From the NCBI RefSeq assembly GCF_004010195.1, contig NC_057718.1, positions 74,781,403-74,814,566 of the forward strand: a stretch of DNA of 33,164 bases, given 5' to 3'. The notes beneath the pieces were generated by a model that ran no database searches, had not been told where the DNA came from, and worked only from the letters and a program-made list of their open reading frames with translations. Positions 9,603 to 31,091 of this stretch are shown piece by piece; within the stretch, counting starts at the first letter, position 1; each line of letters begins with the position of its first letter. A program made the position numbers and the translations under genes. This DNA is from Chiloscyllium plagiosum (Eukaryota).

Positions 9603-10040
9603 AATCCTAGTCCTAGGCCTCCTCCACTGCCAAATCCAAGCCACCCAACAGCTGGAGGAAGAACACCTCATCTTCCACCTTGGCACCCTTCAACCACACG
9701 GCATTAACATCAACTTCACTAGTTTCCTAATTTCCCCTCCCCCCACCTCAACCCAGATCCAATCCTCTAACTAGGCACTGCCGTCTTGAACTGTCCTACC
9801 TGTCCATCTTCCCTCCTATCTATATACTCCACCCTCCCCTATTCAACCCCATTGCATCTGCCTATCTCCTTCTCAGCTATCTTTTTCCCCAATCCCCACT
9901 CCCACATTCCATTTTATCTCTTGCTCCCCCCCCCCCACCCCCACATTTCTGATGAAGGGCTTATGCCCAAAATGTTGACTCTCCTGCTCCTTGGAGGCTG
10001 CCTGACCTGCTGTGTTTTTCCAGCACCACACTGTTTGATT
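9603..10040 (+). mobile_element. Penelope-like element 3' end (GIY-YIG C-terminus + pLTR with hammerhead remnant)
   Basis: VLGLLHCQIQATQQLEEEHLIFHLGTLQPHGININFTSF, then a C-rich UTR and ctgatgaagggcttatgcccaaaatgttg at 9949. Confidence 0.88.
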
Positions 10041-10509
10041 CAATTTCTAACTGGCAGTCTTATGTGACTTGGCCATACAAGCTATTTGGATTCATTTGAA
10101 TTTCAAATGAAAAAGCTAATCTTAAATCCACTTAGTATTCTAAGATTTGTGCATGACCAAAGGCTCATTTTGAACCCAAAATTGGACTTTGGCCTTATTT
10201 CCACGTAACTTTTGTACTGCAGTGAACTGTTATACTTGAAGCTTTGCAATACTTGAGCACCCCTCAAGTAAATGAGGACATTTGGATAATTATGATTTTG
10301 ACTGATGATACACAATAAAATGTCAGTAGCTGGGATAACACAGTTCTGAGTATTTTTCTACTGGTTGTAGTTGACCACAAAAAGAAGCAGCAGGGGCATT
10401 TCACAATAAAGCTTATAGTATGATAAGAGAAACTGGATAAAAGAACAAGCTGTAACAAACAAGGAACAAAGAATGCAGACAAGGACAGCAGGATGGCCAG
10501 ATAAGAAAA

Positions 10510-10728
10510 TAACTAACAAGTGAGGTAATCGGCTTATGATAGGATGGGAAAAGGGAAGCATGATTCCGCAACTTGTAAACTGAATAAGAAAGCTAACAGG
10601 CTCTGTTTTGGTGCACATTTCTGCTTGATTGCAGAAGCCTCTGGTCCTGCAAGGCTGTAATAAATTGTTCTTGTTTCCAAGGCTTTGTCTCAGGCTGATT
10701 GATTTGTGAGTGAGTTCTGTTTCTCACA
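10510..10728 (+). repeat. ERV 5' LTR (part shared with the 3' LTR)
   Basis: Direct repeat of 18030-18249 with 4 substitutions and 1 indel; ends ttctcaCA; AATAAA at 10659-10664. Confidence 0.93.
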
Positions 10729-10731
10729 ATT

Positions 10732-10749
10732 TGGGGGCTCATCCGGAAT
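10732..10749 (+). promoter_or_regulatory. Primer binding site, tRNA-Pro
   Basis: TGGGGGCTCATCCGGAAT, 16/18 match to the tRNA-Pro PBS TGGGGGCTCGTCCGGGAT, 3 nt after the LTR end. Confidence 0.9.
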
Positions 10750-11168
10750 CCAAAACTCTGACCACTCAACACTCTTGGGACGATGGGGGAGGTGCACCTT
10801 GCCGATTTCGGTGATCTCCGACTCCCTTGCTTGTAGTTCATGATTTGGGCGAGTATGAACCGGATTGGGAGACCCTGGAAACAAGGTGGGCAGATGCGGC
10901 GGGTTCGGTCGGGCAACTCTTGTGCACAAAACCCAGGTAGGGAAAGGTCTTAAAGGATATATCCGGGTGCCAGGGGGCATCAGTATTTGCTGCAGGAATT
11001 GCCGCAGGACGGGGTGCACCGAAATGACCAGGTAACTCTGTGCACAGACCAAGGTAAGAAAAGAAACCTTCAGTATTGCCTTGGTGGTCGGGACGTACCT
11101 AAGTACGGGAAATTGGCAATATATAAAATAAAGCATATGTCAATGGAAAACAGCCCGTGTCAGAAGAG

Positions 11169-11276
11169 CTAGTAGCTGACCGGCTACTGAGGGTGCACTT
11201 CGTAACTAACTTATGGCCAGACATTCAGAAAAATATTCAAAACCTAGAGGAGTTGTTGCGGGAAGCTCAAAGTGTC
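11169..11276 (+). pseudogene. gag: Second, divergent gag capsid C-terminal fragment in the ERV leader
   Basis: LVADRLLRVHFVTNLWPDIQKNIQNLEELLREAQSV aligns to PIAQGLLKVQFVTKSWPDKQKKLQK...MEELLCEAQKV at 12538-12669. Confidence 0.8.
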
Positions 11277-11280
11277 TGTG

Positions 11281-11316
11281 AGACACACACGCACACACAC
11301 AGACACACACACAGAG
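11281..11316. repeat. Imperfect (CA)n microsatellite
   Basis: agacacacacgcacacacacagacacacacacagag. Confidence 0.85.
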
Positions 11317-11453
11317 AAAAGAGCTGTACAGCTAGTATAAAGTTTAACCCTTTGTGATTCGGTATGAATGCACATTTGTTTGTTGGTGATTGAATGTTAA
11401 CAGTTGAAGTCTCAAAAAGCATATAATTGGCCAGATTAATTAAATTTGCAATA

Positions 11454-12914
11454 ATGGGAGGCAAGGGGAGTTGCCTGTGTAACGATCGATCTGCAAATAA
11501 CGTTAAAGGGGGATATATCCTGCCCGACAGTCCTTTGGGGAAAGTGTTGGGTAATTGGGAACACAACTCCCGGACGCGGGAGAAAGATAAGGCTACAAAG
11601 ATAAACGATTGATGTTTTGTCTGGACTAGAGAAAGTATTAAGGTGCCTGGTATTTTTTGGCCCAAATATGGGTCAGATAAGAATTGGCTGTGTCAAGATC
11701 TTAATATATATGTCAATCGAAAAGAACCGTACAGTCAAAAAGAATCCGATTATGCGGCTTGTTGGATGGGAACCGTTGGAGTAAAATTATGTCCCATGAA
11801 TATGGAGGAATCAGGGGAAGAACAGAAAAAGAATGAACAAGGGAAGCCGCCCCCATATACTACTCCCCGGCACGAGCCTACAGCTCCCGAAGTAGAACTG
11901 AGTCCAGACACAGAAAAAGGAACGGACTCTGAACTAAAAGATGCAGAATCTAGTGGGCTCAGAATCACTCAAGCCACCACACGTAAAGGAGAGGCAGAGG
12001 TAATGGAAAATGTAAAATGATGTCCCTTACGAGAGGTTCCGATTGGGGAAGGTACAATCAGATATGTAAACGCTCCCTTAACTAGCAGTGAAGTTAGGGC
12101 CTTTAAAAAGGAAATGAAAAGTTTAATAGAGGATCCAGGTGGACTAGCCGAACAACTAGAGCAATTCCTAGGGCCTAATTTATATACCTGGGGAGAACTG
12201 ATGGCAATTTTAGGAACGTTATTTTCAGGGGAAGAACGAGGTATGATTAGGAGAGCGGCTTTATAGGAATGGGAAAAGAAGCACCCAGTTGGGGAAGAAG
12301 GGGCCCCAGCAGAACAGAAATGTTGACCCTCATTGGGAGAATAATGACAGAAGAGATAGGGAGTCAATGCGGGATCTATGAGAAATGGTAATATTAGGAA
12401 TTAAAGAGGCGGCACCTAGATCACAAAACTTTGTTAAGGCCTTTGAAGTACGACAAGAGAAGGATGAAACCCCTTCTGCATTTCTTAAAAGGCTCAAGGA
12501 GGCCACAAGGAAGTATTCGGGAATGGATTCCGATAATCCGATAGCACAGGGACTCTTAAAGGTCCAGTTTGTAACTAAATCATGGCCGGACAAACAAAAG
12601 AAATTACAGAAATTCAATGGATGGTGTGAAAGACAGATGGAAGAATTGTTATGTGAGGCACAGAAAGTGTGAAGCAGAAACAGAAAGCCAAAATGATGGT
12701 GGCGGCAGTAGAAGAAATAACAAAAAGGAGAATGGGATGAAGGGATAACAGAAAGGATAGGGGAAGACACGAAAGACAAGGGTCAGATACCCAGGAAAAG
12801 AGGCAACAGGCAGGGTGTTACCATTGCGGGAAAGTGGGGCATTTTAAACGGGAATGCCCGGAATTAGCACGAGAACGGGAAGCCGTTTCCCTAATGACCT
12901 TAGATGAAGATTAG
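11454..12914 (+). pseudogene. gag: ERV gag (MA-CA-NC), disrupted
   Basis: MGGKGS myristoylation-type start; PDSPLG, FWPKYGS, PLREVP, VNAPLTSSEVR, FLGPNLYTW, QEKDETP; one CCHC knuckle CYHCGKVGHFKREC at 12816-12857; TAG at 12912; internal stops and frameshifts. Confidence 0.92.
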
Positions 12915-12976
12915 GGGAGTCAGGGGTTCCTTCCTCCTGAGACCCACCGGGAACCCTTGATGAATTTAAAGGTGGG
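12912..12976 (+). promoter_or_regulatory. gag-pol UAG readthrough signal (predicted H-type pseudoknot)
   Basis: TAG in frame with pro, 8-nt spacer, stem 1 12923-12931/12949-12957, stem 2 CCCACC 12943-12948 with GGTGGG 12971-12976. Confidence 0.75.
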
Positions 12977-15900
12977 ACCTGAAGGGGAGGAGGCAGTATT
13001 TTTGGTGGACACGGCACGGTCATCCCTAAGTTTTAGACCTACCGGTGTTAAATTGACTAAGGAGTATGTTAAAGTTTCCGGAGTAAAAGGCGAAGAATTC
13101 TTGGTGCCTATTTTTGAACCAACCCTAATTAGAAGTGATGAGGAAGTGATAGGACAATTACTATATAGTCCTGACATTGGAAGTAATCTATTAGGTAGGG
13201 ATTTGATTATATTGCTGGGCTTAAAAATTGGGGTAGAGGATAGTGCAGTAACTGTAACGATGGCTATGTTAACACCTAGTGAAGAAAAACAAATCAGCCC
13301 TGACGTATGGGTGAAAGCGGATAACACAGGGCATCTAAATATTACTCCGTTGGTGATTACATTGACTCGAGAAGATGAGACAGTTCGGGTTAGACAATAC
13401 CCTGTATCGTTGGAAGGCAGTAGAGGTCTGCAACCAGTTATAGATTCTTTGGTAAAAACTGGACTGTTAGAACCATGTATGTCGCCCTTTAATACCCCAA
13501 TACTGCCCGTCCGCAAACCAGATGGAACCTTTCGATTGGTGCAGGATCTTAGGGCATTGAACTGATTGGTTCGAACACGACACCCGGTGGTACCTAATCC
13601 ATATACTTTGCTAGGCAAAATACCGTGTAACCACTGCTGGTTTAGTGTAATAGATTTAAAAGATGCATTCTGGGCTTGTCCTCTGGCCCCAGAAAGCCGC
13701 AACATGTTTGCTTTTGAATGGGAAAACCTATACACTGGTAGAAAACAGCAGTTCCGATGAACGGTACTTCCCCAGGGATTCACAGAATCACCTAATCTAT
13801 TCGGGCAAGTACTGGAACCGGTCCTGGACCAACATAAAATATCTCGGGGAACGTCATTGTTACAATATGTGGACGATTTACTTGTATCAGGACAAAAGAG
13901 ATGACATGAGTTTAGCCACCAATAGACTGTTAAATTTCCTAGGGCAACAGGGTTTAAGAGTATCTAGGAATAAATTGCAATATGTAGAGAAAGAGGTGAA
14001 ATACTTGGGACACCTTATTAGTGAGGGCACTAGGCGCATTAACCCTGAGAGAATTAAAGGGATCATTGAACTGCCCCTTCCGACCACCAAATGAGAATTA
14101 CGGAAGTTCTTGGGGCTGGTGGGCTATTGTAGATTATGGATAGAAGCATACGCCCAGAAAATGAAGGGGTTATATTACAAATTGACAGAATCTAAACATG
14201 AAAGACTGCACTGGACAGAAGAGGAAAAGGAAGGGTTACATGAGTTGAAGCACAGTCTAATACGAGCTCCGGTGTTGGCCCTTCCCTCCCTAGATAAATC
14301 ATTCCACCTTTTTGTGACAGTAAATAATGGAGCAGCCTTAGGAATGTTAACCCAGAAAGGAGAGGGAAAGAGACAGCCTATAGTCTTCCTGTCCAAGATC
14401 TTGGACCCTGTCTCGAGGGGATGGCCTGAATGTATACTGGCAGTAGCAGCCATTGCCATACTGGTAGAGGAAAGCCATAAACTTACTTTTGGAGGGGCGC
14501 TAGTCGTTAGTACCCCCCATCAAGTTAGAACTGTGTTAAACCAAACGGCAGGGAGATGGTTAACAGACTCACGAATCTTAAAATACGAAACCATCCTGAT
14601 GGAGAGAGATGACCTAGTGTTAGCGACAGACACCAGTCTAAATCCAGCTACCTTCCTATGGAAGGGAGAACCTCTAGACAAATGAGAATTAGAACATGAC
14701 TGCCTGGATATCATAGAATATCAAACCAAAGTTAGACAGGACCTAAAGGATATCCCCTTACATGACGGGGACAGACTGCTTATAGGCGGGTCATCAAGAG
14801 TAGTACAAGGAAAAAGACACAATGGAGATGCAGTAGTGGACGGTAACGAGAATCGAACGGTTGAGGCTGACCGGTTGCCTAACACATGGTCAGCCCAGAC
14901 TTGTGAGTTGTATGCATTAAACCAAGCTTTAAAACAATTAGAGAATCGAGATGGGACAATTTACACCGACTGTAAGTATGCCTATGGGGTGGTACATACC
15001 TTCGGAAAAATATGGCAAGAACGTGGACTAATCAACAGCCGGGGAAAGGAATTGATACACGAAGAGTTGATAGGACAAGTGTTGAAAAATTTGGAATTAC
15101 CCCAGGAAATAGCCACAGTCCATGTACCTGGGCACCAGAAGGGGAACACTCTAGAAGCAAGAGGGATAGGCTAGCAGACGAGGCAGCTAAAGAGGCAGCT
15201 ATAAGCCACACAGTAACAAAAATACGGGTTCTCACACCCATAGTGGAGTCCCCTTCCGTGAACCCCATGTACACGGAAGAAGAGGAAAAGGAATTCCAGG
15301 AAATGGGGGCCACTAAGACAACCCAAGGAAGATGGATCTTCTCGGATTGAAGGGAGTTATTAAGTAAACCAGTTATGAGAAACATCCTAACCACCTTGCA
15401 TTAAGGCAGTCACTGGGGATCCCAAGCTATGTGTGACATAGTGTTAAGGAAATACGGATGTAAAGGGATATACACATTAGCCAAGCAGGTATGCGCAGGA
15501 TGCCGACTTGCCAAAAGATTAATAAGAAAGTAACAAGAGGGGGGCCAGGAGGTGGAAGAAACCCTGGGGTAAGACCTTTTTAAAGAATACAGGTAGATTA
15601 CACAGAATTAATCCCAGTAGGGAAACAAAAGTACTTATTAGTCCTAATGGACCACCTAACTGGGTGGGTGGAGGCATTTCCAATGTCCTCAGCTACTTCA
15701 AAGGGAGTAGTGAAAACTCTTTTAGAACATATAATTCCTTGATATGGAGTGGTGGAAAGTATAGATTCAGACCAAGGTAGCTATTTTACCTCTAAGATCC
15801 TACAAGAAGTAAGGGCGGGATTAGAGATCTCTTGGGAATTCCACACTCCTTGGCACCCGCCTTCCTCTGGACGGTGGAACGAATGAATCAAACCTTAAAG

Positions 15901-16418
15901 AAGCAATTGTCTAAGCTAGTCCTAGAGACTCGATTACCATGGACAAAATGTTTACCTATCGTGTTGCTACACATTAGGACTGCACCTAGACATGATATAG
16001 GCCTCTCTCCTTATGAGATGATGTTTGGATTACCTTTCTTGGGTGGAAGATGGGAATTACCAACTGTAGAGTTCAATGATAAGTTTTTAAAGAACTATTG
16101 TGGCGCTCGGCTCTTCTTTGGAAGAAGGGTCTGTTGACTCAGACACCTCCACTTGAGTTCGCAGTACATCGGATACGACCGTGTGATTGGGTCCTGATAA
16201 AGACCTGGAAAGATACCAAACTGCACCCAAGCTGGGAGGGACCGTTCCTAACCCTCCTGACTACTGAAACAGCCATCCGAACTGCTGAAAAAGGGTGGAG
16301 TCATCACACTCGTGTTAAGGGCCCGGTGGACACTCCTTCCCCTCCGGCAGAGTGGCAAGCACATCCCACAGACAACCCTCTGAAAATCAAGCTGAGCAAA
16401 AAGAATGGACTGAGATAA
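12915..16418 (+). pseudogene. pol: ERV pro-pol (PR, RT, tether, RNase H, integrase), disrupted
   Basis: FLVDT and NLLGRDL; QYP, SPFNTPILPV, VQDLRALN, DLKDAF, LPQGF, YVDD at 13866-13877; SAQTCEL, IYTD; IQVDYTE, IDSDQG, VERMNQTLK, WEGPF; many stops and frameshifts. Confidence 0.95.
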
Positions 16419-16540
16419 GAGACTATTAAGTATTGGTTAAAAAAAAACTGTATCCCAAAACAATTGTAAGTGTTGCATGGGTTCACTCCTCCCTGGTATT
16501 TAAAGGGTTAGGGAATAGACAGATAGGGTTGTGAGCTGAA

Positions 16541-17873
16541 ATGAATGGTCAGCTTTATGTTGTCATGATAATATTGGCGCTAGCTGCCAAGGGGGGGGAT
16601 GGGAAAAATCATTTTACTGCTTTATGTCAGAATTGTGCTAAACTAAAGGGGCATACTGACTGTTGGGTATGTGCTGAGATCCCACACCATGGGGAATCCG
16701 GAATTCCTCTCACGGTAATACCACTTACCAAAGAAGAAGTGTACGATGTACAACAATTTGACTCAGGCTCAAATGATACAACTTGGAGATTTGAAAGGGG
16801 TAATTATAACTTTGTGGGATGGTTCCCTCAACCAGCCCCAAAAACTCTGGGTGCTATCGATGGCCTTAGAGTTTCCCCCCGAAAGGAGCAGTAAATACCA
16901 CTTGTTTCTGTAATCAGAATGATACAGCACCTTTCTGATTAGGAAAATCATCTTGTGTCTACACCAGCCAAACCACTGCCACGACCATTCCCCAAATATT
17001 AAACGGAACATATTGGGTATGCGGCCTGAAGGCCTATCTATTTATTCCTGGGGAGAAATACATTCGCGTGACTGAATGTATAGGAATGCATGCATGTTAT
17101 GATGTTGATCAAACACTGCCTCAAAGCCAGAAAGGCTGGAGTGGCTGCTGCTACCTCGCCTATATAATTCCCCACTTCAGGCTGTTAAAGAGAGCCCCAA
17201 AATTACCTTGGAATAAATAGGGAGGAAAGCGAGTAACCCGGAAAGTAACCGAAGGAGATCGCCTCCTCTGGACTTTGATACCTATGTATTGGACCGCTCA
17301 AGCAGGAGTAGAAATACAAAAGTTGGTGGCTTCCCTGGAAGAGTTGGCCAACAATACTGCTATGCGTTGGCCGAAACCCAATCCCAAGTAGCAGCCATAA
17401 CGACCGAAATGATTGCCATTAGGCTAACGACCCTTCAGAACAGGATGGGTCTGGATAATGTTCTAGCAGAGAAGGGTGGTATCTGTGCACTAATTGGAGA
17501 GGAATGTTGTACGTACATACCTGAGGTCTCCTCTAACATTACTGATATCTCCAAACATGTGCGAGACAAAATTGCCAAGATAAGGAAGGCCGGTAATCGG
17601 TTCCAGAATGAAAAAGGATGGGAATGGGGCAATTGGGGATTGACTGGTTGGGGAAGGTGGCTAGTCAATCTAGCTATCTATGGATTATTGATATTAGTGG
17701 GTCTGGTGGTAGGGTTCAATGTCCTAAAATGGGTAATGAGCCGACTGATGACATCCCTTGAGGAAGGAACCCAAATAAATCATCAGATGCTTTTACAATC
17801 AGCAGGTGATATGCAACAAAGAGAAAGTCAAAGAATGCATCAAAGGGACGAACAACTCAAATGTAAAATGTAA
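16541..17873 (+). pseudogene. env: ERV env, gamma-type, disrupted
   Basis: Signal peptide; CWVC at 16661-16672; RVTR cleavage site ~17230-17241; ISD LQNRMGLDNVLAEKGG; CX6CC CALIGEECC at 17484-17510; TM LVNLAIYGLLILVGLVVGF; about 2 frameshifts and 2 stops. Confidence 0.92.
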
Positions 17874-17965
17874 GATTGTGAACCTCATCGCCAAAAGGCA
17901 TAAGAGGGCAGAACATAAAAAAAAAAATAAATAAAGGAGAATTAATAAGTGCAAAAACAACAGTT

Positions 17966-17987
17966 AGAGAAAAAGAATAAGAGGGAA
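17966..17987 (+). promoter_or_regulatory. Polypurine tract
   Basis: agagaaaaagaataagagggaa just before the presumed 3' LTR start. Confidence 0.7.
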
Positions 17988-17988
17988 T

Positions 17989-18249
17989 TATGGGAGATTA
18001 GAAATGTTGTTGTTGCAGGTGGGGGAGGGTAACTAACAAGTGAGGTAATCAGCTTATGATAGGATGGGAAAAGGGAGGCATGATTCCGCAACTTGTAAAC
18101 TGAATAAGAAAGCTAACAGGCTCTGTTTTGGTGCACATTTCTGCTTGATTGCAGAAGCGTCTGGTCCTTGCAAGGCTGTATTAAATTGTTCTTGTTTCCA
18201 AGGCTTTGTCTCAGGCTGATTGATTTGTGAGTGAGTTCTGTTTCTCACA
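17989..18249 (+). repeat. ERV 3' LTR
   Basis: 18030-18249 repeats 10510-10728; start inferred from the PPT (tatggg, degenerate TG); ATTAAA at 18180-18185; ends in CA. Confidence 0.88.
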
Positions 18250-19235: not shown

Positions 19236-19486
19236 ACAGTCTGAAAAAATCTAGAGTCAGCAAACAATACAAGTAATTAGATTAATTTGTTATAATTAGA
19301 CTATCTCTACAGACATACAGCAATAAACCATTCATTGATAATTCTGCTAACTAAAACTCTAATCCTATTATAAACTTCTCCGTGACCACAAATGCACAGA
19401 AAACCAAAAGGGAAAATAGATTCTTGGTGGTAATGTGAAACTGGAAAGTCAGTTCAGTGGTCTTTACCTCCCTGTTCTGGTGTTGA

Positions 19487-20602
19487 GATTATTCTTCTGA
19501 ATTTACACAACAATCCCAATAAGCAAACCCCCTTTAAAAAAAACAGTAAAAATTGAACAATTGCTTACAGGTTGAAGTCAGAAGGGTAGAAGGAGAGAGA
19601 GTTTCACAGACTGTTTCCACACAGTTGAACTCCTAACTAGTTCTGAATTGAACTGCTCAGCAAGAGAGCTGACCACTCCCCTTTCATTATACAGATTACT
19701 TTTAAAACATGACCACTTTCGCCTGAAGTCTCATCTGTTTATCTGTAAACAAAAGGCTCTCAACATCCTTTATCATCCCTGTACCAAATTAGTCACCCTG
19801 GAGTTGGAAGGGTTTTATGCCTCCTCTGAAAAAATAACAAGGACACAGTATTGTTGTGGGGAAAAACACCAGTCTCGGAGTCAGAATTGAATTTCAATGA
19901 CACAAGGAAATACCGGAGCTCCGGGGAGAGAAAGACACCGACAGCACAGTTGTTAACTGCAAGTCTTCTCTTGACCCAGAGCACATGTCAAGAAACTTTT
20001 ATACATCTTGTGATACAATAGGTCAGTGATGAGATTATTGTCTTTGTAACATGGTTTGTTTATGGCAATCATTGCAGAACCATTGATAGATTCAATGCAG
20101 TCTTTGTCAGTTCCAGCACAACCTTTGTTAATTTTCGCGTGGTCATTGTCAGTTTCAGTGCAGACATTGTCAGTTTCAATGTCTGCATGGAAATCTATGG
20201 GCGCTAATCACTCTTCCTGAGAAGGATGATTACTGCAGCCCTGGCTATTAGCATTTCGTATTGTATATGTATCAAACTGTTAGCATTTCTATAAGAGGTG
20301 TTGGCTGGACCCTGGCAGTGTTTGTTGCTAATGTGTATTCTCTCTTGCCTTAAACTAATCAGCTGGGTTGTGAGTGCATTGTGCTGGCATTCTGGTGGCC
20401 CCAAGTAGTGTCTGTATCTGCTCTACTGTTTCTATCCATATTGTGATCCAGTGGCCATCTTGTGTATCAAGTTGGGCAACTAATAGCTCAGTGGCCATCT
20501 TGTGTGTCCATGTGCCTAGTATCATCCTGCCCCATGGCATCTCCCTCATCAGTATCCTTGAGAAAAGGCACCGCTTTTAGAAACAAGGGATCAGCTTTGA
20601 TA
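19487..20602 (-). repeat. Gmr1-like 3' LTR (truncated, interrupted by a solo LTR)
   Basis: Homologous to ~24520-24916 (gaactcctaactagttctg, gcctgaagtctcatctgttta); PPT cctccccccttt at 20603-20614 adjacent. Confidence 0.85.
19852..20551 (-). mobile_element. Solo LTR of an unrelated family
   Basis: TG...CA ends with imperfect inverted termini tgttgtggg/ccctcatca; 4-bp TSD GTAT at 19848-19851 and 20552-20555; minus-strand TATAAAA near 20000. Confidence 0.85.
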
Positions 20603-20799
20603 CCTCCCCCCTTTAAAAAATGAACTATCAATATCAAAAGATGACTTTACTTTTAAAACCCCGCAAAAACACACTGGTTAGTAGTCTAAAACACATATAT
20701 ACACCATAGCAATGGTACACATGCAAAAATGCACAACCACATGCAAATTCAGGCCATGGCACATCTGCCACTGAATGCCTCTGTATCTCAGTTGAGTCC

Positions 20800-22900
20800 C
20801 GATAACGCATCGGCGATCATATTTTCCTTTTTTGTCCTTAAATTTTTCTACAAATGTCAATGGGTTATGAACAGTGTACACGATTGTCTCTGATGCATTG
20901 CTGGTAATATAAACACTGAAATGTCGTAATGCCAACACCAAGCTCAAAGTCTCTTTCTCCACCATTGAATATTTTGGTTAATGAACATTCAACTTCCTGG
21001 AAAAATACCCAATAGATCTTTCTATTCCCTGGTCATCCTCCTGCAGGACCACCCCACATCACTGGCATCGAATGCAACCTTGAAAGGCTTCATGTAATCC
21101 AGGGTGGCTAATACTGAGGAAATGGTTAACACAGTTTTTTGGCTGTCAAATGCCTTTTGACAGTCCGCTGTCCACTGAAACTTCTTGCCCTTTTGTTTTT
21201 AAAAATTCGGTGAGTGGAGCAGCCACATTGCTAAAGTTTGGCACAAGCTTTTAGTAAAATCCATTCCACCCCAGGAACTGTAGTACTGCTTTATTTGTCG
21301 ATGGTGTGGGAAATTCCCCAATACTTTCATTTTCACATCCCGTGGGGTCATTTGTCCATGTCCAATAACATGGCCCAGGAAGGCGACTTGGGCTTTGAAC
21401 ATTCACTTTTAGCTAGGTTTACCACCAAGCCTGCCTTGCAAAGTCAATTGAACAAATCCGATAAATGCTGTAAATATTCCTTCCATGAATGACTAAAAAC
21501 CACCAGGTCATCAATGTAAACAACATAATTGGGTAACCCAGCAATGACCTTATTTAGTCAGTCTCTGAAATGTGGCTGGAGTGTTTTTCATGCCAAATGG
21601 CATGACTTTGAACTGATATAGTCCATTTAGCATTACAAAAGCTGAAATTGCCTTTGCTCTCTCTGACAGATGTACTTGCCAGTAGTCTCTGAGCAAGTGC
21701 AGCTTAGAAATGTAAATTGCTTGTCCCACCTTTTTGACACAGTCCTCCAACCGTGGAATTGGATATGCATCAGTTTTTGTAACTGCGTAGACTTTGCGAT
21801 AGTCCACACATAACTATTGGGTACCATATGGCTTTCACTGTGATGCTGCATAATAGGATGGCCTCTGGAAATCTAGTCGACATGTTCATTATTGTTAATA
21901 AATACTCATTCCCACTTTTTGTTTGAGGTAGGGGACTTACGCAATCAATCAAGACTCTTATGAAAGGTTCTTCAAATGCTGCATTAAAGGTGCAGGTTTT
22001 ATTGCTGCCTGTGGTTTTCCAATTAGCTGACATGTATGACACCCTCACAAAATTCAATGGCATCCTTGTGTAGTCCAGGCCAGTAAAAATGTCTTTGTAT
22101 TTAAGTCTGCATTTTTCTCACCTCTATATGACCTCCAAGTGGTAGCTCCATGCGCCACTCGCAGCAACTCCTTTCTGTATTGTACTGGCAATACAGAACT
22201 TCTGCCCATTTCTTATTCACTTGAATGTGTGATGGTCTCCATTTCCTCATTATGACATCATTTGTTAAGTGATAACAACATGGATACATTCATTATCCTC
22301 TGAGTATGCCTTTTGATACAATGGTTTTTACTTCTCATCTTTCTGCTGTAACTCAATCAGCTTAGCAGAGCTAAAGAAACTTGTTTACCTATTTGCTCCT
22401 GTTCTGTCCCACTTATCTGATCAAAAAAGTCCCTGATAAAGCTATGTCAGCTTCCTTATCTGTGCCTTTTGATCTCTCCTGGTTCAACTTGTGCATCTGT
22501 GATCTTGTGATCACACAATCTGGGAAAATTTCTGGATAAACTAGAGTAGGCAGCATACCTACCAGTGAATTAGTGATATCCTTTGCAAGGACAAATTGTA
22601 TTCCTGGAGCTGAGAGTTTGTCCAATACTCCTACTACAAATTCTCCGCTCTTCTCTGGATTCTCGAGCCTCACTTTACATAATTGAGCACTTTTTGTTTC
22701 ACCATGAATTTCTGTTACCTTTTCTGGCAAGTGTCCCTCAGGAGTATATATCTCCTGATCCTTCAGCATTGCAGACTGAAAGGATCCTGTGTAATCTCTT
22801 CATCTGCTACTCCTGGCCTATGTGAATAAACTTTACCCTTGCATGTATACTTTTTAAGCAGATCTGGCACTTCCTCCTTAACCAACCTCTGATCATCTTG
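20800..22900 (-). pseudogene. pol: Gmr1-like pol (PR-IN-RT-RH)
   Basis: GGH...FYWPGLHKD zinc finger; EEPFIRVLIDCVSPLPQTKSGNEYLLTIM; CVDYRKV, YPIPRLED, MPFGMKN, YIDD at 21507-21518; DASDVG, VEKETLSLVLAL. Confidence 0.9.
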
Positions 22901-22979
22901 TACACTCTGAGGCAGTTACTTAACTTCCTTTATGCTTTTTGTTACTAGGCCAACAAAACTCCCAGGCTTGTCTGGTTTC

Positions 22980-24195
22980 CCTACATATAGCTTTCTCCTA
23001 GCCCACTAATATTGTGATTTCATGTGGCTCACTGTATTACAAATGAAAACAGCAGAGCTTTTTAACTTCTTTGTCCCTATCGAGGGTTTCTTTTTTACCC
23101 TGTGGTAAGTTATACTTATGCTCTTCACTGAGATCTATCTTTCCCTTTCAACGTGAGGATTTCTCTTTGCCCCAATTTTTGTCCCTCATGGACTGAAATT
23201 GATTCTGGAATCCAAACCGTGTTTTACAGATCAGCTCATAATCATCAGCCACTTCAGCTGCCAACCTTGCCATTTTAACTCTCTGCTCTTCCACATGAGT
23301 TTGCACTACTTCAGGCAGTGAATGTTTGAATTCTTCCAAAGTAATTACCTCTCTAAGGGCATCATAGGTTTGTTCGATTTTTTTAAAGGTGTTATTCATC
23401 TATCAAAATTACTCTGTTTGATCCTTTCAAACTCAATGGAGGTTTGACCTGGGTCTCTGCTTAGATTCCTGAAATGTTGTCTATAGGCTTCTGATACAAG
23501 CTCATATGCACTTAAAATGGCTTTTTTCACCTCCTCATACACTCCTGATACCTCCTCTGACAGTGATGCGAATACCTCACGAGCCCTACCTACAAGTTTC
23601 ATTTGGATCAACAAAATCCACATTGCCACTGGTCACTGCATTTGTTTAGCCACCTTTTCAAATGCAATGAAAAAGGCTTTCACATCCTTCTCAAATTTAG
23701 GCAGTGCTTGGACATTAAACAGTTTTTCACTAGGCTTTTGACTACCAGGGGCTTGCTCCAGGTAGTCTCTTTCTCACTAAGCCTACCTTCAGCCTTTATC
23801 TCCAGCCTTTTACACTGACTTTCCTTTTTAAGTGTCAGTTTATGAAGTTCAAAAGCTCTCTCTTTTTCTTTCTCTCCTGCTGCTCTCTTTTTCCCTCTCT
23901 TCTGCTTTTAATCGCAACTCAAACTGTTTCATTTCTGCTGCCCTTTCCTTACCTCTCGCCTCTAATTCAAGCTGCTTCATTTGCAATTGAATTCTTGCCA
24001 TCTCTATAGATTCTGATGGTTTCTCCAGCAAGTTTACATGCTGAGGTACTGCTGTAATTATCTCTCCTTTCCTCACAGAAGCAAGCAGGTCCAATCCCAG
24101 CTGGTCTGCTAATTCCTGCAGCTTGGTCTTATTCATCTTTTGCAAAATTTCCAAAGTCATCGCATCCACTTCCTATTTGCGATTGAAAGAGCCAT
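22980..24195 (-). pseudogene. gag: Gmr1-like gag with SCAN-like capsid domain
   Basis: Coiled coil, then FFIAFEKVAKQMQ, KLVGRAREVF, YEEVKKAILSAYELVSEAYRQHFR, LREVITLEEFKHSLPEVV, AAEVADDY; decayed CFH knuckle. Confidence 0.88.
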
Positions 24196-24283
24196 TACTA
24201 TCCCAAGCTTTGTCTATCCAACCAAACCAACATCCAAAATAAAGACACTAGCACCTACCACTCATTGTTTAAAATCTCATAAA

Positions 24284-24292
24284 GAGCCTCCA
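24284..24292 (-). promoter_or_regulatory. Partial PBS (tRNA-Pro-like) of the Gmr1-like element
   Basis: Minus strand TGGAGGCTC, 3 nt inside the LTR end. Confidence 0.55.
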
Positions 24293-24295
24293 ATC

Positions 24296-24916
24296 TGTTA
24301 TGGACTAGGGCAGAGCACTTAAAACATTCTTAAGCAGGCAGTCCAGACCATAACTTTGCAATTTGTTTCAGTAAGTGTACAGTGAAAATTACCCGGAGTA
24401 AGTTAGCTAGGTTGACTACCAGATTTTAAAACAAAAAAAATTCACAAAATTACACAATGAAACACAAAGAACAGGATAAAGAACCCATACAGAACTCAGT
24501 CTATCCAAATTAGACTTAATAATGTTGTTCCAATTACACCCAGCAGTCCCAAAAAACAACCCCACCCCCTTAAAAAACAGTAAAAATGGAACAAATCCTT
24601 GCAGGTTGAAGTTAGAAGGGCAGAAGAGAGAGAGTGTTCCACAGCCTGTTTCCACACAGCTGAACTCCTAACTAGTTCTGGACTGAACTGCTCCCTTTTC
24701 ATTATACAGATCACTTCTAAAACATGACCATTTTGGCCTGAAGTCTCATCTGTTTACATATAAACAAAAGGCCTCTTAACATCCTTTGTCATCTCTGTAC
24801 CAAACTAATCACCTCGGAGCCAAGAGGGTTTTATGACCCCTCTGAAAACAAACCAAGGACTCAGTATCCTTGGGAAAAGGAACAGCTTTTAGAAAAAAGG
24901 AACCAGCTTTGTGACA
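24296..24916 (-). repeat. Gmr1-like 5' LTR
   Basis: tgttat...gtgaca TG/CA termini, 621 bp, adjacent to the PBS, homologous to the left LTR. Confidence 0.88.
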
Positions 24917-26801: not shown

Positions 26802-27113
26802 GGGGCGGCACGGTGGCTCAGTGGTTAGCACTGCTGCCTCACAGCGCCAGGGACCTGGGTTCAATTCCTGCCTCAGGCGACTGTCTGTGTGGAGTTTGCA
26901 CATTCTCTTCGTGTCTGTGTGGGTTTCCTCTGGGTGCTCCGGTTTTCTCCCACAGTCCAATGATGTGCAGGTTCGGTGAATTGGCCATGCTAAATTGCCC
27001 ATAGTGTTAGGTGCATTAGTCAGGGTGGGTTGCTCTCCGGAGGGTTGGGTGGACTTGTTGGGCTGAAGGGCCTGTTTCCACATTGTAGGGAATCTAATCT
27101 AATCTAAAAAAAA
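26802..27113 (+). mobile_element. HE1/V-SINE, near full length
   Basis: A box TGGCTCAGTGG at 26814, B box GGTTCAATTCC at 26858, central gtgggtttcctctgggtgctccggttt, (aatct)3 plus A tail. Confidence 0.93.
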
Positions 27114-28480: not shown

Positions 28481-31091
28481 CTACACTATTCCATGTACGT
28501 CCATTTGCCTGTCCAACGATGACTTAAATGCACTTAAACTTGGCGAATCTACTACCGATGCAGGCAAAGCATTCCATACCCTTACTACTCTCTGAGTAAA
28601 GAAACTACCTCTGACATCTGCCTTATACCTATCTCCCCTCACTTTAAAGTTGTGTTCCCTCGTGTTTGCCGTCCCCGTACTTGGAAAAAGGCTCTCCCTG
28701 TCCACCCTATCTAACCCTCTGATTATCTTGTATGTCTCTATTAAGTCACCTCTCAACCTTCTTCTCTCTAACGAGAACAGCCTCAAGGCCCTCAGCCTTT
28801 CCTCGTAAGACATTCCTTCCATACCAGGCAACATCCTAGTCAATCTCCTCTGCACCCTTTCCGAAGCTTCCACATACTTCTTATAATGCGGTAACCAAAA
28901 CTGTAGCTGAAAATGTGTTGCTGGAAAAGCGCAGCAGGTCAGGCGGCATCCAAGGAGCAGGAGAATCGACGTTTCGGGCATGAGCCCTTCTCCTGCTCCT
29001 TGGATGCTGCCTGACCTGCTGCGCTTTTTCAGCAACACATTTTCAGCTCTGATTTCCAGCATCTGCAATCCTCACTTTCTCCCCTAACCAAAACTGTATA
29101 CAATACTCCAAGTGTGGCCATACCAGAGCTTTGTACAGCTGGTTCCAGAACTCATTCCCTCTATTAATAAAGGCCAAAACACTGTATGCCTTCTTAACAA
29201 CCCTGTCAATCTGGGTGGCAACTTTCAGGGATCGGTGTATATGGACACCGAGATCTCTCTGCTCATCTGCACTCCCAAGAATCTTACCATTAGCCTAGTA
29301 TTTTGCATTCCGATTACTCCGGCCAAAGTGTATCACCTCACTCTTGTCCACATTAAACTCCATTTGCCACCTCTCAGCCCAGCTCTGAATCCTAGCTATG
29401 TCTCTCTGCAACCTATTACATCCTTCGTCACTATCCACAACTCTACCGACCTTAGTGTCGTCTGCAAATTTACTAACCCATCCTTTTAAGCCCTCATCCA
29501 GTTCATTTATAAAAATGATGAACAGCAGTGGACCCAACACCGATCCTTGCGGTACGCTGCTAGTAACTGGGCACCAAGATGAACATGTTCCATCAACTCC
29601 AACCCTCTGTTTTCTTTCAGCAAGCCAATTACTTATCCAAACAGCTATGTCTCCCACAATCCCATTCCTCCGCATTTTGTAAAGTAGCCTACTGTGGGGA
29701 ACCTTATCGAACGCCTTGCTGAAATCCATGTACACCACATTACCGGTTTACTCTCATCTACCTGTTTGGTCACTTTGTCAAAAAACTCAATAAGATTCGT
29801 TAGGCACGAACTACCCTTCACAAAACCGTGCTGACTGTTCCTGATTATTTTTTTCTAGATGGTTGTAAATCCTATCTCTTATAACCTTTTCCAACACTTT
29901 ACCAACAACTGAAGTGAGACTCACTGGTCTGTAATTACCAGAGTTGTCTCTACTACCCTTTTTGCACACACAACTTCCCACTATTATCCTTGTTTGGCCC
30001 TAATTTAACTCTTGTCATTCTTTTATTCCTGACATATCTATGGAAAGCCTTAGGGTTAACCCTGATCCTATCCACCAACAATGTCTCATGTCTCCTCCTG
30101 GTTCTTCTGAGCTCTCTTTTTAGGTCTTTCCTGACTTCCTTGTAACCCTCAAGCACCCTAACTGAGTTTTCTCATTTTGTCCTAACATAAGCCTCCTTCT
30201 TCTTCTTGACCAGGGATTCCACTTCCTTAGTAAACCACAGCTCACGCGTTCTATATCTTCCTCTCTGCCTGATAGGTACATACTTATCTAGGACACACAG
30301 GTGCTTTTCCTTGAATAAGCTCCACATTTTTAATGTGCTTATCCCTTGCAGTTTCCTTTCCCATTCTACGCTTCCTAAATCTTTCCTAATTGCATCGTAA
30401 TTTCCCTTCCCTCAGTTGTAACTCTTGCTCACCTATCCCTTTCCATCACTACAGTAAACCTGACAGAATTGTGATCGCTGTCTCCAAAGTGCTCACCTAC
30501 TTCCAAATCCAACACCCGGCCAGGCTCGTTACCCATTACTAAATCTAAAGTGGCTTCGTCCCTTGTAGGCCTGTCTACAGACTGTATCAGGAAGCCCTCC
30601 TGCACACACTGGACAAAAACTGACCCACCTATAGTACTCGTAATGTAGTGATCCCAGTCAATATTTGGATAGTTGAAGTCCCCCATGACAACTATCCTGC
30701 CTCTCTCACTCCAATCGAAAATTATCTTTGCTATTCTTCCCTCTACATCTCTGGGACTATTCGGAGGCCTATAGAAAACTCCCAGCATGGTGACTTCTCC
30801 TTCCCTGTTTCTAACCTCAGCCCATACTACCTCAATTAACGAGTCCCCAAACATCCTTTCTACAACTGTAATATTGTCCCTGATCAACAATGCCACACCT
30901 CCCCCTCTTTTACCATCTTCTCTGTTCTTACTGAAACATCTGAATCCTGGAACCTGCAACAGCCATTCCTGTCCCTGCTCAATCCATGTCTCCGTAATGG
31001 CCACAACATCGAAGTCCCAGGTACCAACCCACGCTGCCAGTTCACCCACTTTATTTCGGATATTCCTCACGTTGAAGTACACACACTTCAA
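28481..31091 (-). pseudogene. CR1 ORF2 (APE endonuclease + RT), disrupted
   Basis: AITETW, GGGVAL, YRPPN, MGDFN, SDHN; YRPVSLTS, DFSKAFDKV, PQGSVLGP, FADDTK; deletion near 29960. Confidence 0.92.
28906..29084. mobile_element. Short fold-back Penelope pLTR element with 14-bp TSD
   Basis: TSD taaccaaaactgta at 28892-28905 and 29085-29098; 61-bp arms 28905-28965 and 28988-29048 with 2 mismatches. Confidence 0.92.

Follow-up and report, generated by a model that had tools for sequence, protein, structure and literature searches.

A putative second gag, collapsed and lying in the leader of a decayed endogenous retrovirus of Chiloscyllium plagiosum

Why does the leader of an endogenous retrovirus (ERV) carry a second copy of the capsid end of the gag gene that follows it, and where does this copy come from? 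The question is raised by a window of 33,164 nucleotides (the whole stretch of DNA that was analysed, positions 74,781,403 to 74,814,566 of contig NC_057718.1, Chiloscyllium plagiosum), on the plus strand of which a decayed ERV lies at approximately 10510-18249. A sequence-only reading of this window had noticed the capsid fragment and had attributed it to another retroviral lineage, with the leader as a recombinant relic of a collapsed second genome or as a pre-gag module.

The provirus and its surroundings

The provirus consists of the following parts, all on the plus strand:

10510 to 10728, plus strand: the part of the 5' LTR with a counterpart in the 3' LTR (219 aligned bases with 4 mismatches, plus a 1-nt indel, against 18030-18249)
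10732 to 10749, plus strand: primer-binding-site-like stretch beginning 3 nt past the LTR end, which we take to be of the tRNA-Pro type
11454 to 12914, plus strand: own gag of the provirus, interrupted by stops and frameshifts (ORF pieces; Pfam Gag_p30, E=4e-17)
12915 to 16416, plus strand: pro-pol, broken, its end approximate (RT_RNaseH and RNase_H Pfam matches; ORF pieces)
16540 to 17873, plus strand: env, broken, its start approximate (TLV_coat, E=9e-13 on 17217-17870)
17990 to 18249, plus strand: 3' LTR, its start inferred from the preceding purine tract

The own gag encodes one CCHC finger and contains the counterparts of both relic pieces described below, the matrix counterpart at 11634-11741 and the capsid counterpart at 12538-12669. 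Its capsid matches MLV capsid chains (E=4e-11), and 12538-12669 aligns with the last part of the C-terminal domain of MLV capsid. The gene ends in a TAG (12912-12914) and the pro frame goes on at 12915, gag and pro-pol thus sharing one frame, and the same gag-TAG-pro-pol arrangement is described for MLV (PMC4178896, in the part of the text that is accessible). The MLV-like p30 capsid, the gag-TAG-pol frame, the gamma-type env and the paired LTRs are class I features and suggest that the provirus is a class I (gamma/epsilon-like) ERV, an assignment made from gag and env domains and layout. Over the capsid region, six Chiloscyllium punctatum proteins are 81-91% identical to the own gag, three catshark proteins 59-62% and bird proteins 52-54%, values from which a bamboo shark or a near relative would be the likely host. 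Outside sharks, the named gags that come nearest are those of passerine birds (P0013-P0024; 52-54% over the capsid C-terminal part), which have the same conserved tail motif. The spacing from LTR through primer-binding site and leader to gag is ordinary (about 720 nt), the pre-gag regions of gamma-like HERVs being given as 423 to about 2000 nt long, with an origin that is mostly unexplained according to the accessible part of PMC6995185.

The ends of the provirus are less regular. Over 219 bases, the two LTRs have 98% identity, yet upstream of 10510 and 18030 they are unrelated (10250-10509 compared with 17990-18029), so that nothing upstream in the 5' LTR, the true edge of which was not found, corresponds to the first 40 nt of the 3' LTR. 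A target-site duplication of 4-6 nt was sought within 10000-10520, and none was found. As the first 40 nt of the LTRs differ and no target-site duplication was found, the locus must have been altered after integration, and both observations point to a deletion or an exchange.

The window contains other elements as well. Another decayed LTR element, whose terminal repeats have diverged, lies on the minus strand at about 19300-24910, with a repeat piece recurring at 20549-20599, and would by eye be a Gypsy-type retrotransposon. At 28905-29048, two arms of 61 nt, 97% complementary and 22 nt apart, are made of a repeat that is found elsewhere in the window, and the structure resembles an inverted duplication at the end of a retroposon. 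A short interspersed repeat is present in two copies (1426-1608 and 26803-27087), presumably related to the shark HE1 SINE, which it resembles.

A capsid tail and matrix pieces ahead of gag

The leader features on which the question turns are these:

11071 to 11109, plus strand: putative relic gag, matrix block 1, with a firm part (PKYG, 11098-11109) and a weaker part (11071-11097)
11136 to 11168, plus strand: putative relic gag, matrix block 2 (11 codons), matching own gag 11709-11741 and residues 65-75 of protein P0028
11169 to 11276, plus strand: relic gag, C-terminal tail of the capsid with 8 codons deleted, from codon and protein alignment to own gag 12538-12669
11283 to 11313, plus strand: CA dinucleotide tract just 3' of the relic, seen in the sequence, a candidate junction

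The 36 stop-free codons of 11169-11276 align to the 44 codons of own gag 12538-12669 with a single gap. When this gap is 24 nt long, 19 of 30 positions in the right-hand part match, against at most 13 of 30 for other lengths between 18 and 30 nt, and the coordinates, the frame and the in-frame gap of eight codons that the sequence-only reading had given for a second capsid C-terminus upstream of the gag ATG are thereby confirmed. Relic and own gag have 62% nucleotide identity and 21 of 36 identical residues, their longest common word is 8 nt, and the protein score of 90 compares with a maximum of 55 across 500 shuffled leaders. The eight residues that the relic lacks are present in all 24 homologs, and the gap therefore is a deletion in the leader copy. 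Repeats of at least 30 nt flanking the fragment, the ends of which are uncertain, were not found in the repeat survey of the window.

The extent of 11169-11276 that had been proposed holds for the capsid piece and is too narrow for the relic, as a matrix-derived piece lies directly upstream. From these alignments, the leader appears to hold a collapsed second gag of about 200 bases, in which a matrix piece is joined in frame to the capsid tail. Matrix block 2 ends at 11168 and the capsid piece begins at 11169 in the same frame, and the junction skips about 279 codons, the two parts being separated by 279 residues in P0028. The two sides of the junction start with a similar three-residue motif in P0028 (SEE and SED), which is a hint that would fit a deletion at short homology, P0028 having been seen as a protein only. 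The two matrix blocks lie 10 nt closer to each other than in gag and are out of frame with each other.

In block 1, PKYG is identical to own gag 11661-11672 and to residues 49-52 of P0028, and all three base differences from own gag are at third positions. The protein match of block 2 was reached by 1 of 100 shuffles for the own matrix and by none of 100 for the P0028 matrix, and with three bird-like matrix proteins the match did not stand out from the shuffles (48, 29 and 51 of 100). In all four settings, none of 400 shuffles equalled the chains of matrix blocks; for two control regions of P0028, 250-367 of 400 shuffles did as well or better. All these shuffle figures are somewhat generous, as the matrix target was picked after a first weak hit. 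At the DNA level, the best alignment of 11070-11168 is with own gag 11634-11740 (2 of 500 shuffles; pol-env control 11 of 200), and under three stricter scorings the matrix match was reached by 7, 14 and 21 of 1,000 shuffles (pol control 638, 31 and 216), which makes it modest.

Further upstream, shuffle tests of segments of 10750-11020 against gag and pol-env gave no significant homology, a short stretch between the tested segments lying outside them. For a relic reaching up to the gag N-terminus (10890-11022), the best matches were in the expected place under some scorings, and this longer relic was rejected (215 of 500, 51-300 of 1,000 and 48-91 of 100 shuffles). Also rejected was a relationship between 11277-11453 and gag or pol-env (142 of 500 and 166 of 200 shuffles). 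A 10-nt palindrome is shared by the leader (10955-10964) and early gag (11511-11520) at about the offset of the matrix relic; it is not significant alone (51 of 1,000 shuffles) and might represent another block of the relic or a signal for dimerisation.

Coding past, decay and relatives of the relic

The differences between relic and own gag are distributed over the codon positions one, two and three as 8/5/28 (7/5/28 with the gap one codon later), in agreement with the claim that they are mostly at third positions, and the eight codon pairs quoted for it are all in the alignment. An even spread is rejected (chi-square p=1e-5), with 28 third-position differences reached in none of 200,000 random placements. 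The codon alignment with pS and pN against own gag, which had been recommended as a check, gave a pS of 0.93, which is beyond correction, and a pN of 0.23; synonymous sites are saturated. In simulations with the criterion of at least 28 third-position and at most 13 other differences, a neutral leader copy next to a gag under purifying selection, with one clock, reached the pattern in 0 of 96,000 simulations (24 settings), and two long-coding copies, with or without later decay, in 0-30 of 1,500 simulations (36 settings). The earlier interpretation, a divergence under coding constraint instead of a local duplication that decayed neutrally, thus agrees with the simulations, and the codon pattern would already refute such a neutral local duplication unless some other three-base rhythm had constrained the leader sites. 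The favoured model fits codon positions one and two, and the 28 third-position differences lie in its upper tail, with 23.8 expected at saturation with the codon usage of the provirus (P=0.07). Among codons for the same residue, 16 of 20 differ, compared with 11.5 expected (P=0.028, post hoc). A selection against identity with own gag was considered on these figures (P=0.028 for same-residue codons, P=0.07 for all codons) and, being post hoc, is not claimed.

If the relic once was coding, it is likely that it no longer is. Defining conserved columns as those in which at least 16 of the 18 aligned homologs agree (18 of the 24 homologs being in the alignment), the relic departs at 9 of 24 such columns, two of them by the gap, own gag at 1 and the homologs at 0-4; without the gap columns, 7 of 22 are changed in the relic versus 1 of 22 in own gag (p=0.046). 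The invariant Trp is missing, and by alignment to MLV capsid the relic starts downstream of the major homology region, the boundary of which on MLV capsid we assumed for this placement. With no major homology region and 9 of 24 conserved columns changed or deleted, the piece does not have the attributes of a functional capsid C-terminal domain. The capsid frame of the relic is that of the gag ATG, and the open stretch around it (11127-11354, 76 codons) has no ATG and, in this one copy, is cut off from the gag ATG by stops at 11355, 11391 and 11424, so that no open frame leads from an upstream start into gag as it would in a glyco-Gag or a translated pre-gag ORF. The suggestion of a pre-gag module, understood as a working ORF, lacks support on the same grounds, namely the absence of an in-frame ATG, the three stops and the loss of conserved residues. 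As the relic is more decayed than the dead gag beside it, its decay likely began before this copy integrated. In an alternative reading, the altered residues would be the true residues of a remote lineage and not a result of decay.

The relic is about equally close to all 13 non-bird-like gags (19-23 identities over 36 columns): 21-23 to the six Chiloscyllium proteins, 21 to own gag, 19-21 to the three catshark proteins and 20-22 to three others, the best of the 24 homologs matching at 23 columns. To twelve bird-like gags there are 13-18 identities, and own gag has 31-34 of 36 to its family. In a tree of 44 columns and 26 rows, the family of own gag forms one group (90/86), and the relic stands outside on a long branch, unresolved. 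A position of the relic as sister of own gag is rejected (p-AU 0.024); a position as sister of the whole bamboo-shark family (p-AU 0.81) or of the catshark proteins (p-AU 0.10) is not. Of the different-lineage donor in the sequence-only reading, the separation from own gag therefore stands, and the donor need not be distant, as the relic may be sister of the whole family. Rather than a remote genus, the different lineage is likely a relative from the same broad clade of class I. The codon pattern, the simulations, the matrix chain and the tree agree in that the leader carries coding sequence that diverged in another ERV lineage, as in the recombinant leader of ERV-W.

For the donor family itself, which had been proposed as a target for translated searches, no close relative was found. 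When proteins were searched with the relic, none of 83 candidates of 94-2000 aa and none of 2 of 29-93 aa were similar, the full HMMER scan produced two matches that were rejected as repeat proteins unrelated to Gag, the Pfam scan was blank, the ESM Atlas returned no usable match, and related loci sought in viral and metagenome contigs were not found. Part of 10300-13000 occurs in 20 of the 24 listed sequencing runs (4 organisms; shares 0.18-0.36), with no RNA run among those that contain it, which has no bearing on the relic.

Origin of the relic and comparison with known systems

The explanation that we consider probable is that a collapsed gag was captured from a related, long-diverged retrovirus by a template switch in reverse transcription and has since been a non-coding passenger. 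Both gags would have evolved apart as working genes until their synonymous sites were saturated, and the donor would have lost most of its gag by deletion and decayed, either as a defective element or after the capture. The RNAs of donor and helper would then have been co-packaged and joined, most simply with the 5' end of the donor followed by the leader tail and gag-pol-env of the helper, and the switch point may have been near the CA tract (11283-11313). Such a recombinant would be stable, because 62% identity and a longest shared word of 8 nt are too little for a deletion between direct repeats: in the accessible part of PMC3187697, an exact repeat of 110 bp is deleted in 41% per cycle, and with less than 82% identity the figure is under 1%. 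Prior to the integration of this copy, it would have been passed on in a replicating lineage. That the matrix and capsid pieces are joined directly backs the collapsed second genome that had been suggested. Against a capture speaks that the sister position of the relic to the whole family would be expected from an ancient duplication as well, in a tree of 44 columns with a long relic branch; that the protein searches revealed no donor; that the DNA match of the matrix piece is modest; and that the third-position differences lie in the upper tail of the model. The differing LTR starts and the missing target-site duplication also argue against a clean history, as the locus was rearranged after integration and could be a genomic chimera.

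Such a chimera, assembled in the host genome and never part of a replicating virus, would have two sources, a small defective element for the 5' LTR, the leader and the relic, and a different provirus for gag-pol-env. LTRs that share 219 bases and then differ are not expected from reverse transcription, and the failure to find a target-site duplication fits as well. The crossover would need homology within 11277-11453, so that the defective element must already have had the leader tail and the LTR of the family, and the ordinary spacing from LTR to gag, within the range given in the accessible part of PMC6995185, also stands against a chimera, which we regard as unlikely. Distinctly unlikely is an ancient duplication of gag within the own viral lineage, with both copies coding for long, the upstream one as an accessory or glyco-Gag-like gene that later collapsed. 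It would yield the same codon pattern, it is in line with the p-AU of 0.81 for a sister of the whole family, and the capsid frame of the relic is that of the gag ATG, an agreement that has a prior of one in three. As exact repeats are often deleted, together with the sequence between them (PMC3187697, accessible part), a fresh internal duplication is unlikely to survive, and a literature search found no tandem-gag retrovirus.

A captured gag might also have been whittled down in frame and kept throughout the family as a leader RNA structure or as a matrix-capsid mini-protein that interferes with competing viruses, in which case the long class I leaders could be built from the collapsed gags of relatives; we judge this extended scenario improbable. 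It is related to a retained function of the relic in general, either of a matrix-capsid mini-protein that interferes with a competing Gag or of an RNA structure in the leader, for which one feature has to be added:

11079 to 11192, plus strand: predicted RNA helix of 13 bp, weak (11079-11091 with 11180-11192), spanning the deletion junction of the relic

For 12 of the 13 pairs, the predicted pair probability is 0.83-0.87, and the helix covers three of the unusual residue changes of the relic. A helix as long occurred in 5 of 300 shuffles of the relic span, in 33 of 300 of a wider span and in 2 of 31 control windows, and folding z-scores of -0.27, -1.27 and +0.97 make the overall folding unremarkable. 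That the large junction and the 8-codon gap are both in frame, leaving 76 open codons (11127-11354), and that the predicted helix crosses the junction would speak for a function. The open stretch has no ATG and three stops before gag, a frameshift separates the matrix blocks, the major homology region and the invariant Trp are gone, no similar predicted protein was found, and neither the z-scores of -0.27 and -1.27 nor the helix frequency in control windows set the RNA apart, which makes a kept function very improbable. A local duplication of own gag with neutral decay, or a chance resemblance, has in its favour that the single best-scoring protein is a family member (P0001, 26/41), and is practically negligible in view of the 96,000 simulations, the rejected sisterhood with own gag and the score of 90 against the shuffles.

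If the relic is a captured gag, it is a readable case of where long class I leaders obtain their sequence, an entire gene of a relative being reduced to a small number of blocks, and it records a retroviral lineage that is not found among predicted proteins. If it is present throughout the family, it gives a date for a recombination that involved two shark retroviruses, and the origin of pre-gag regions can then be tested on leaders with collapsed genes; if it occurs at one locus only, it is a curiosity of one decayed provirus.

The provirus itself resembles the class I ERVs of cartilaginous fishes in its Gag_p30, its TLV_coat env and its single gag-pol frame split by TAG, and epsilon-like ERVs have been described in sharks (PMC4422223, in the accessible part, which says nothing on leaders). 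A literature search that had most subscription papers, supplements and Repbase/Dfam entries outside its reach did not turn up a collapsed gag ahead of a complete one. Like the glyco-Gag of MLV, FeLV and KoRV and the pre-gag ORF of HERV-H (PMC6995185, accessible part), the relic lies upstream of gag in the gag frame, but those are translated extensions, whereas the relic is itself a gag remnant and is separated from the gag ATG by three stops. In recKoRV, the koala retrovirus has recombined with the old, dissimilar element PhER, partly at microhomologies, to give a mobile chimera (PMC6112702, accessible part). The likeness is that a retrovirus recombined with a dissimilar, decayed element, but recKoRV loses coding genes to the old element, while the shark provirus retains gag-pol-env and has the foreign piece in its leader. 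Closest is the pre-gag region of Catarrhini ERV-W, of which about 650 nt come from a HERVIP10-like pol according to the accessible part of PMC6995185: also here, a class I ERV has in its leader, between primer-binding site and gag, a coding fragment of another ERV group that is attributed to recombination. The ERV-W fragment is about 650 nt of pol with 82% identity to a known donor, whereas the shark fragment is about 200 nt of gag, internally collapsed and seen in one copy; unlike in ERV-W, it is homologous to a gene that is still present downstream, and no donor was found. The capture of coding sequence into a class I leader is thus known from ERV-W, and a collapsed gag ahead of the own gag would be a new form of it.
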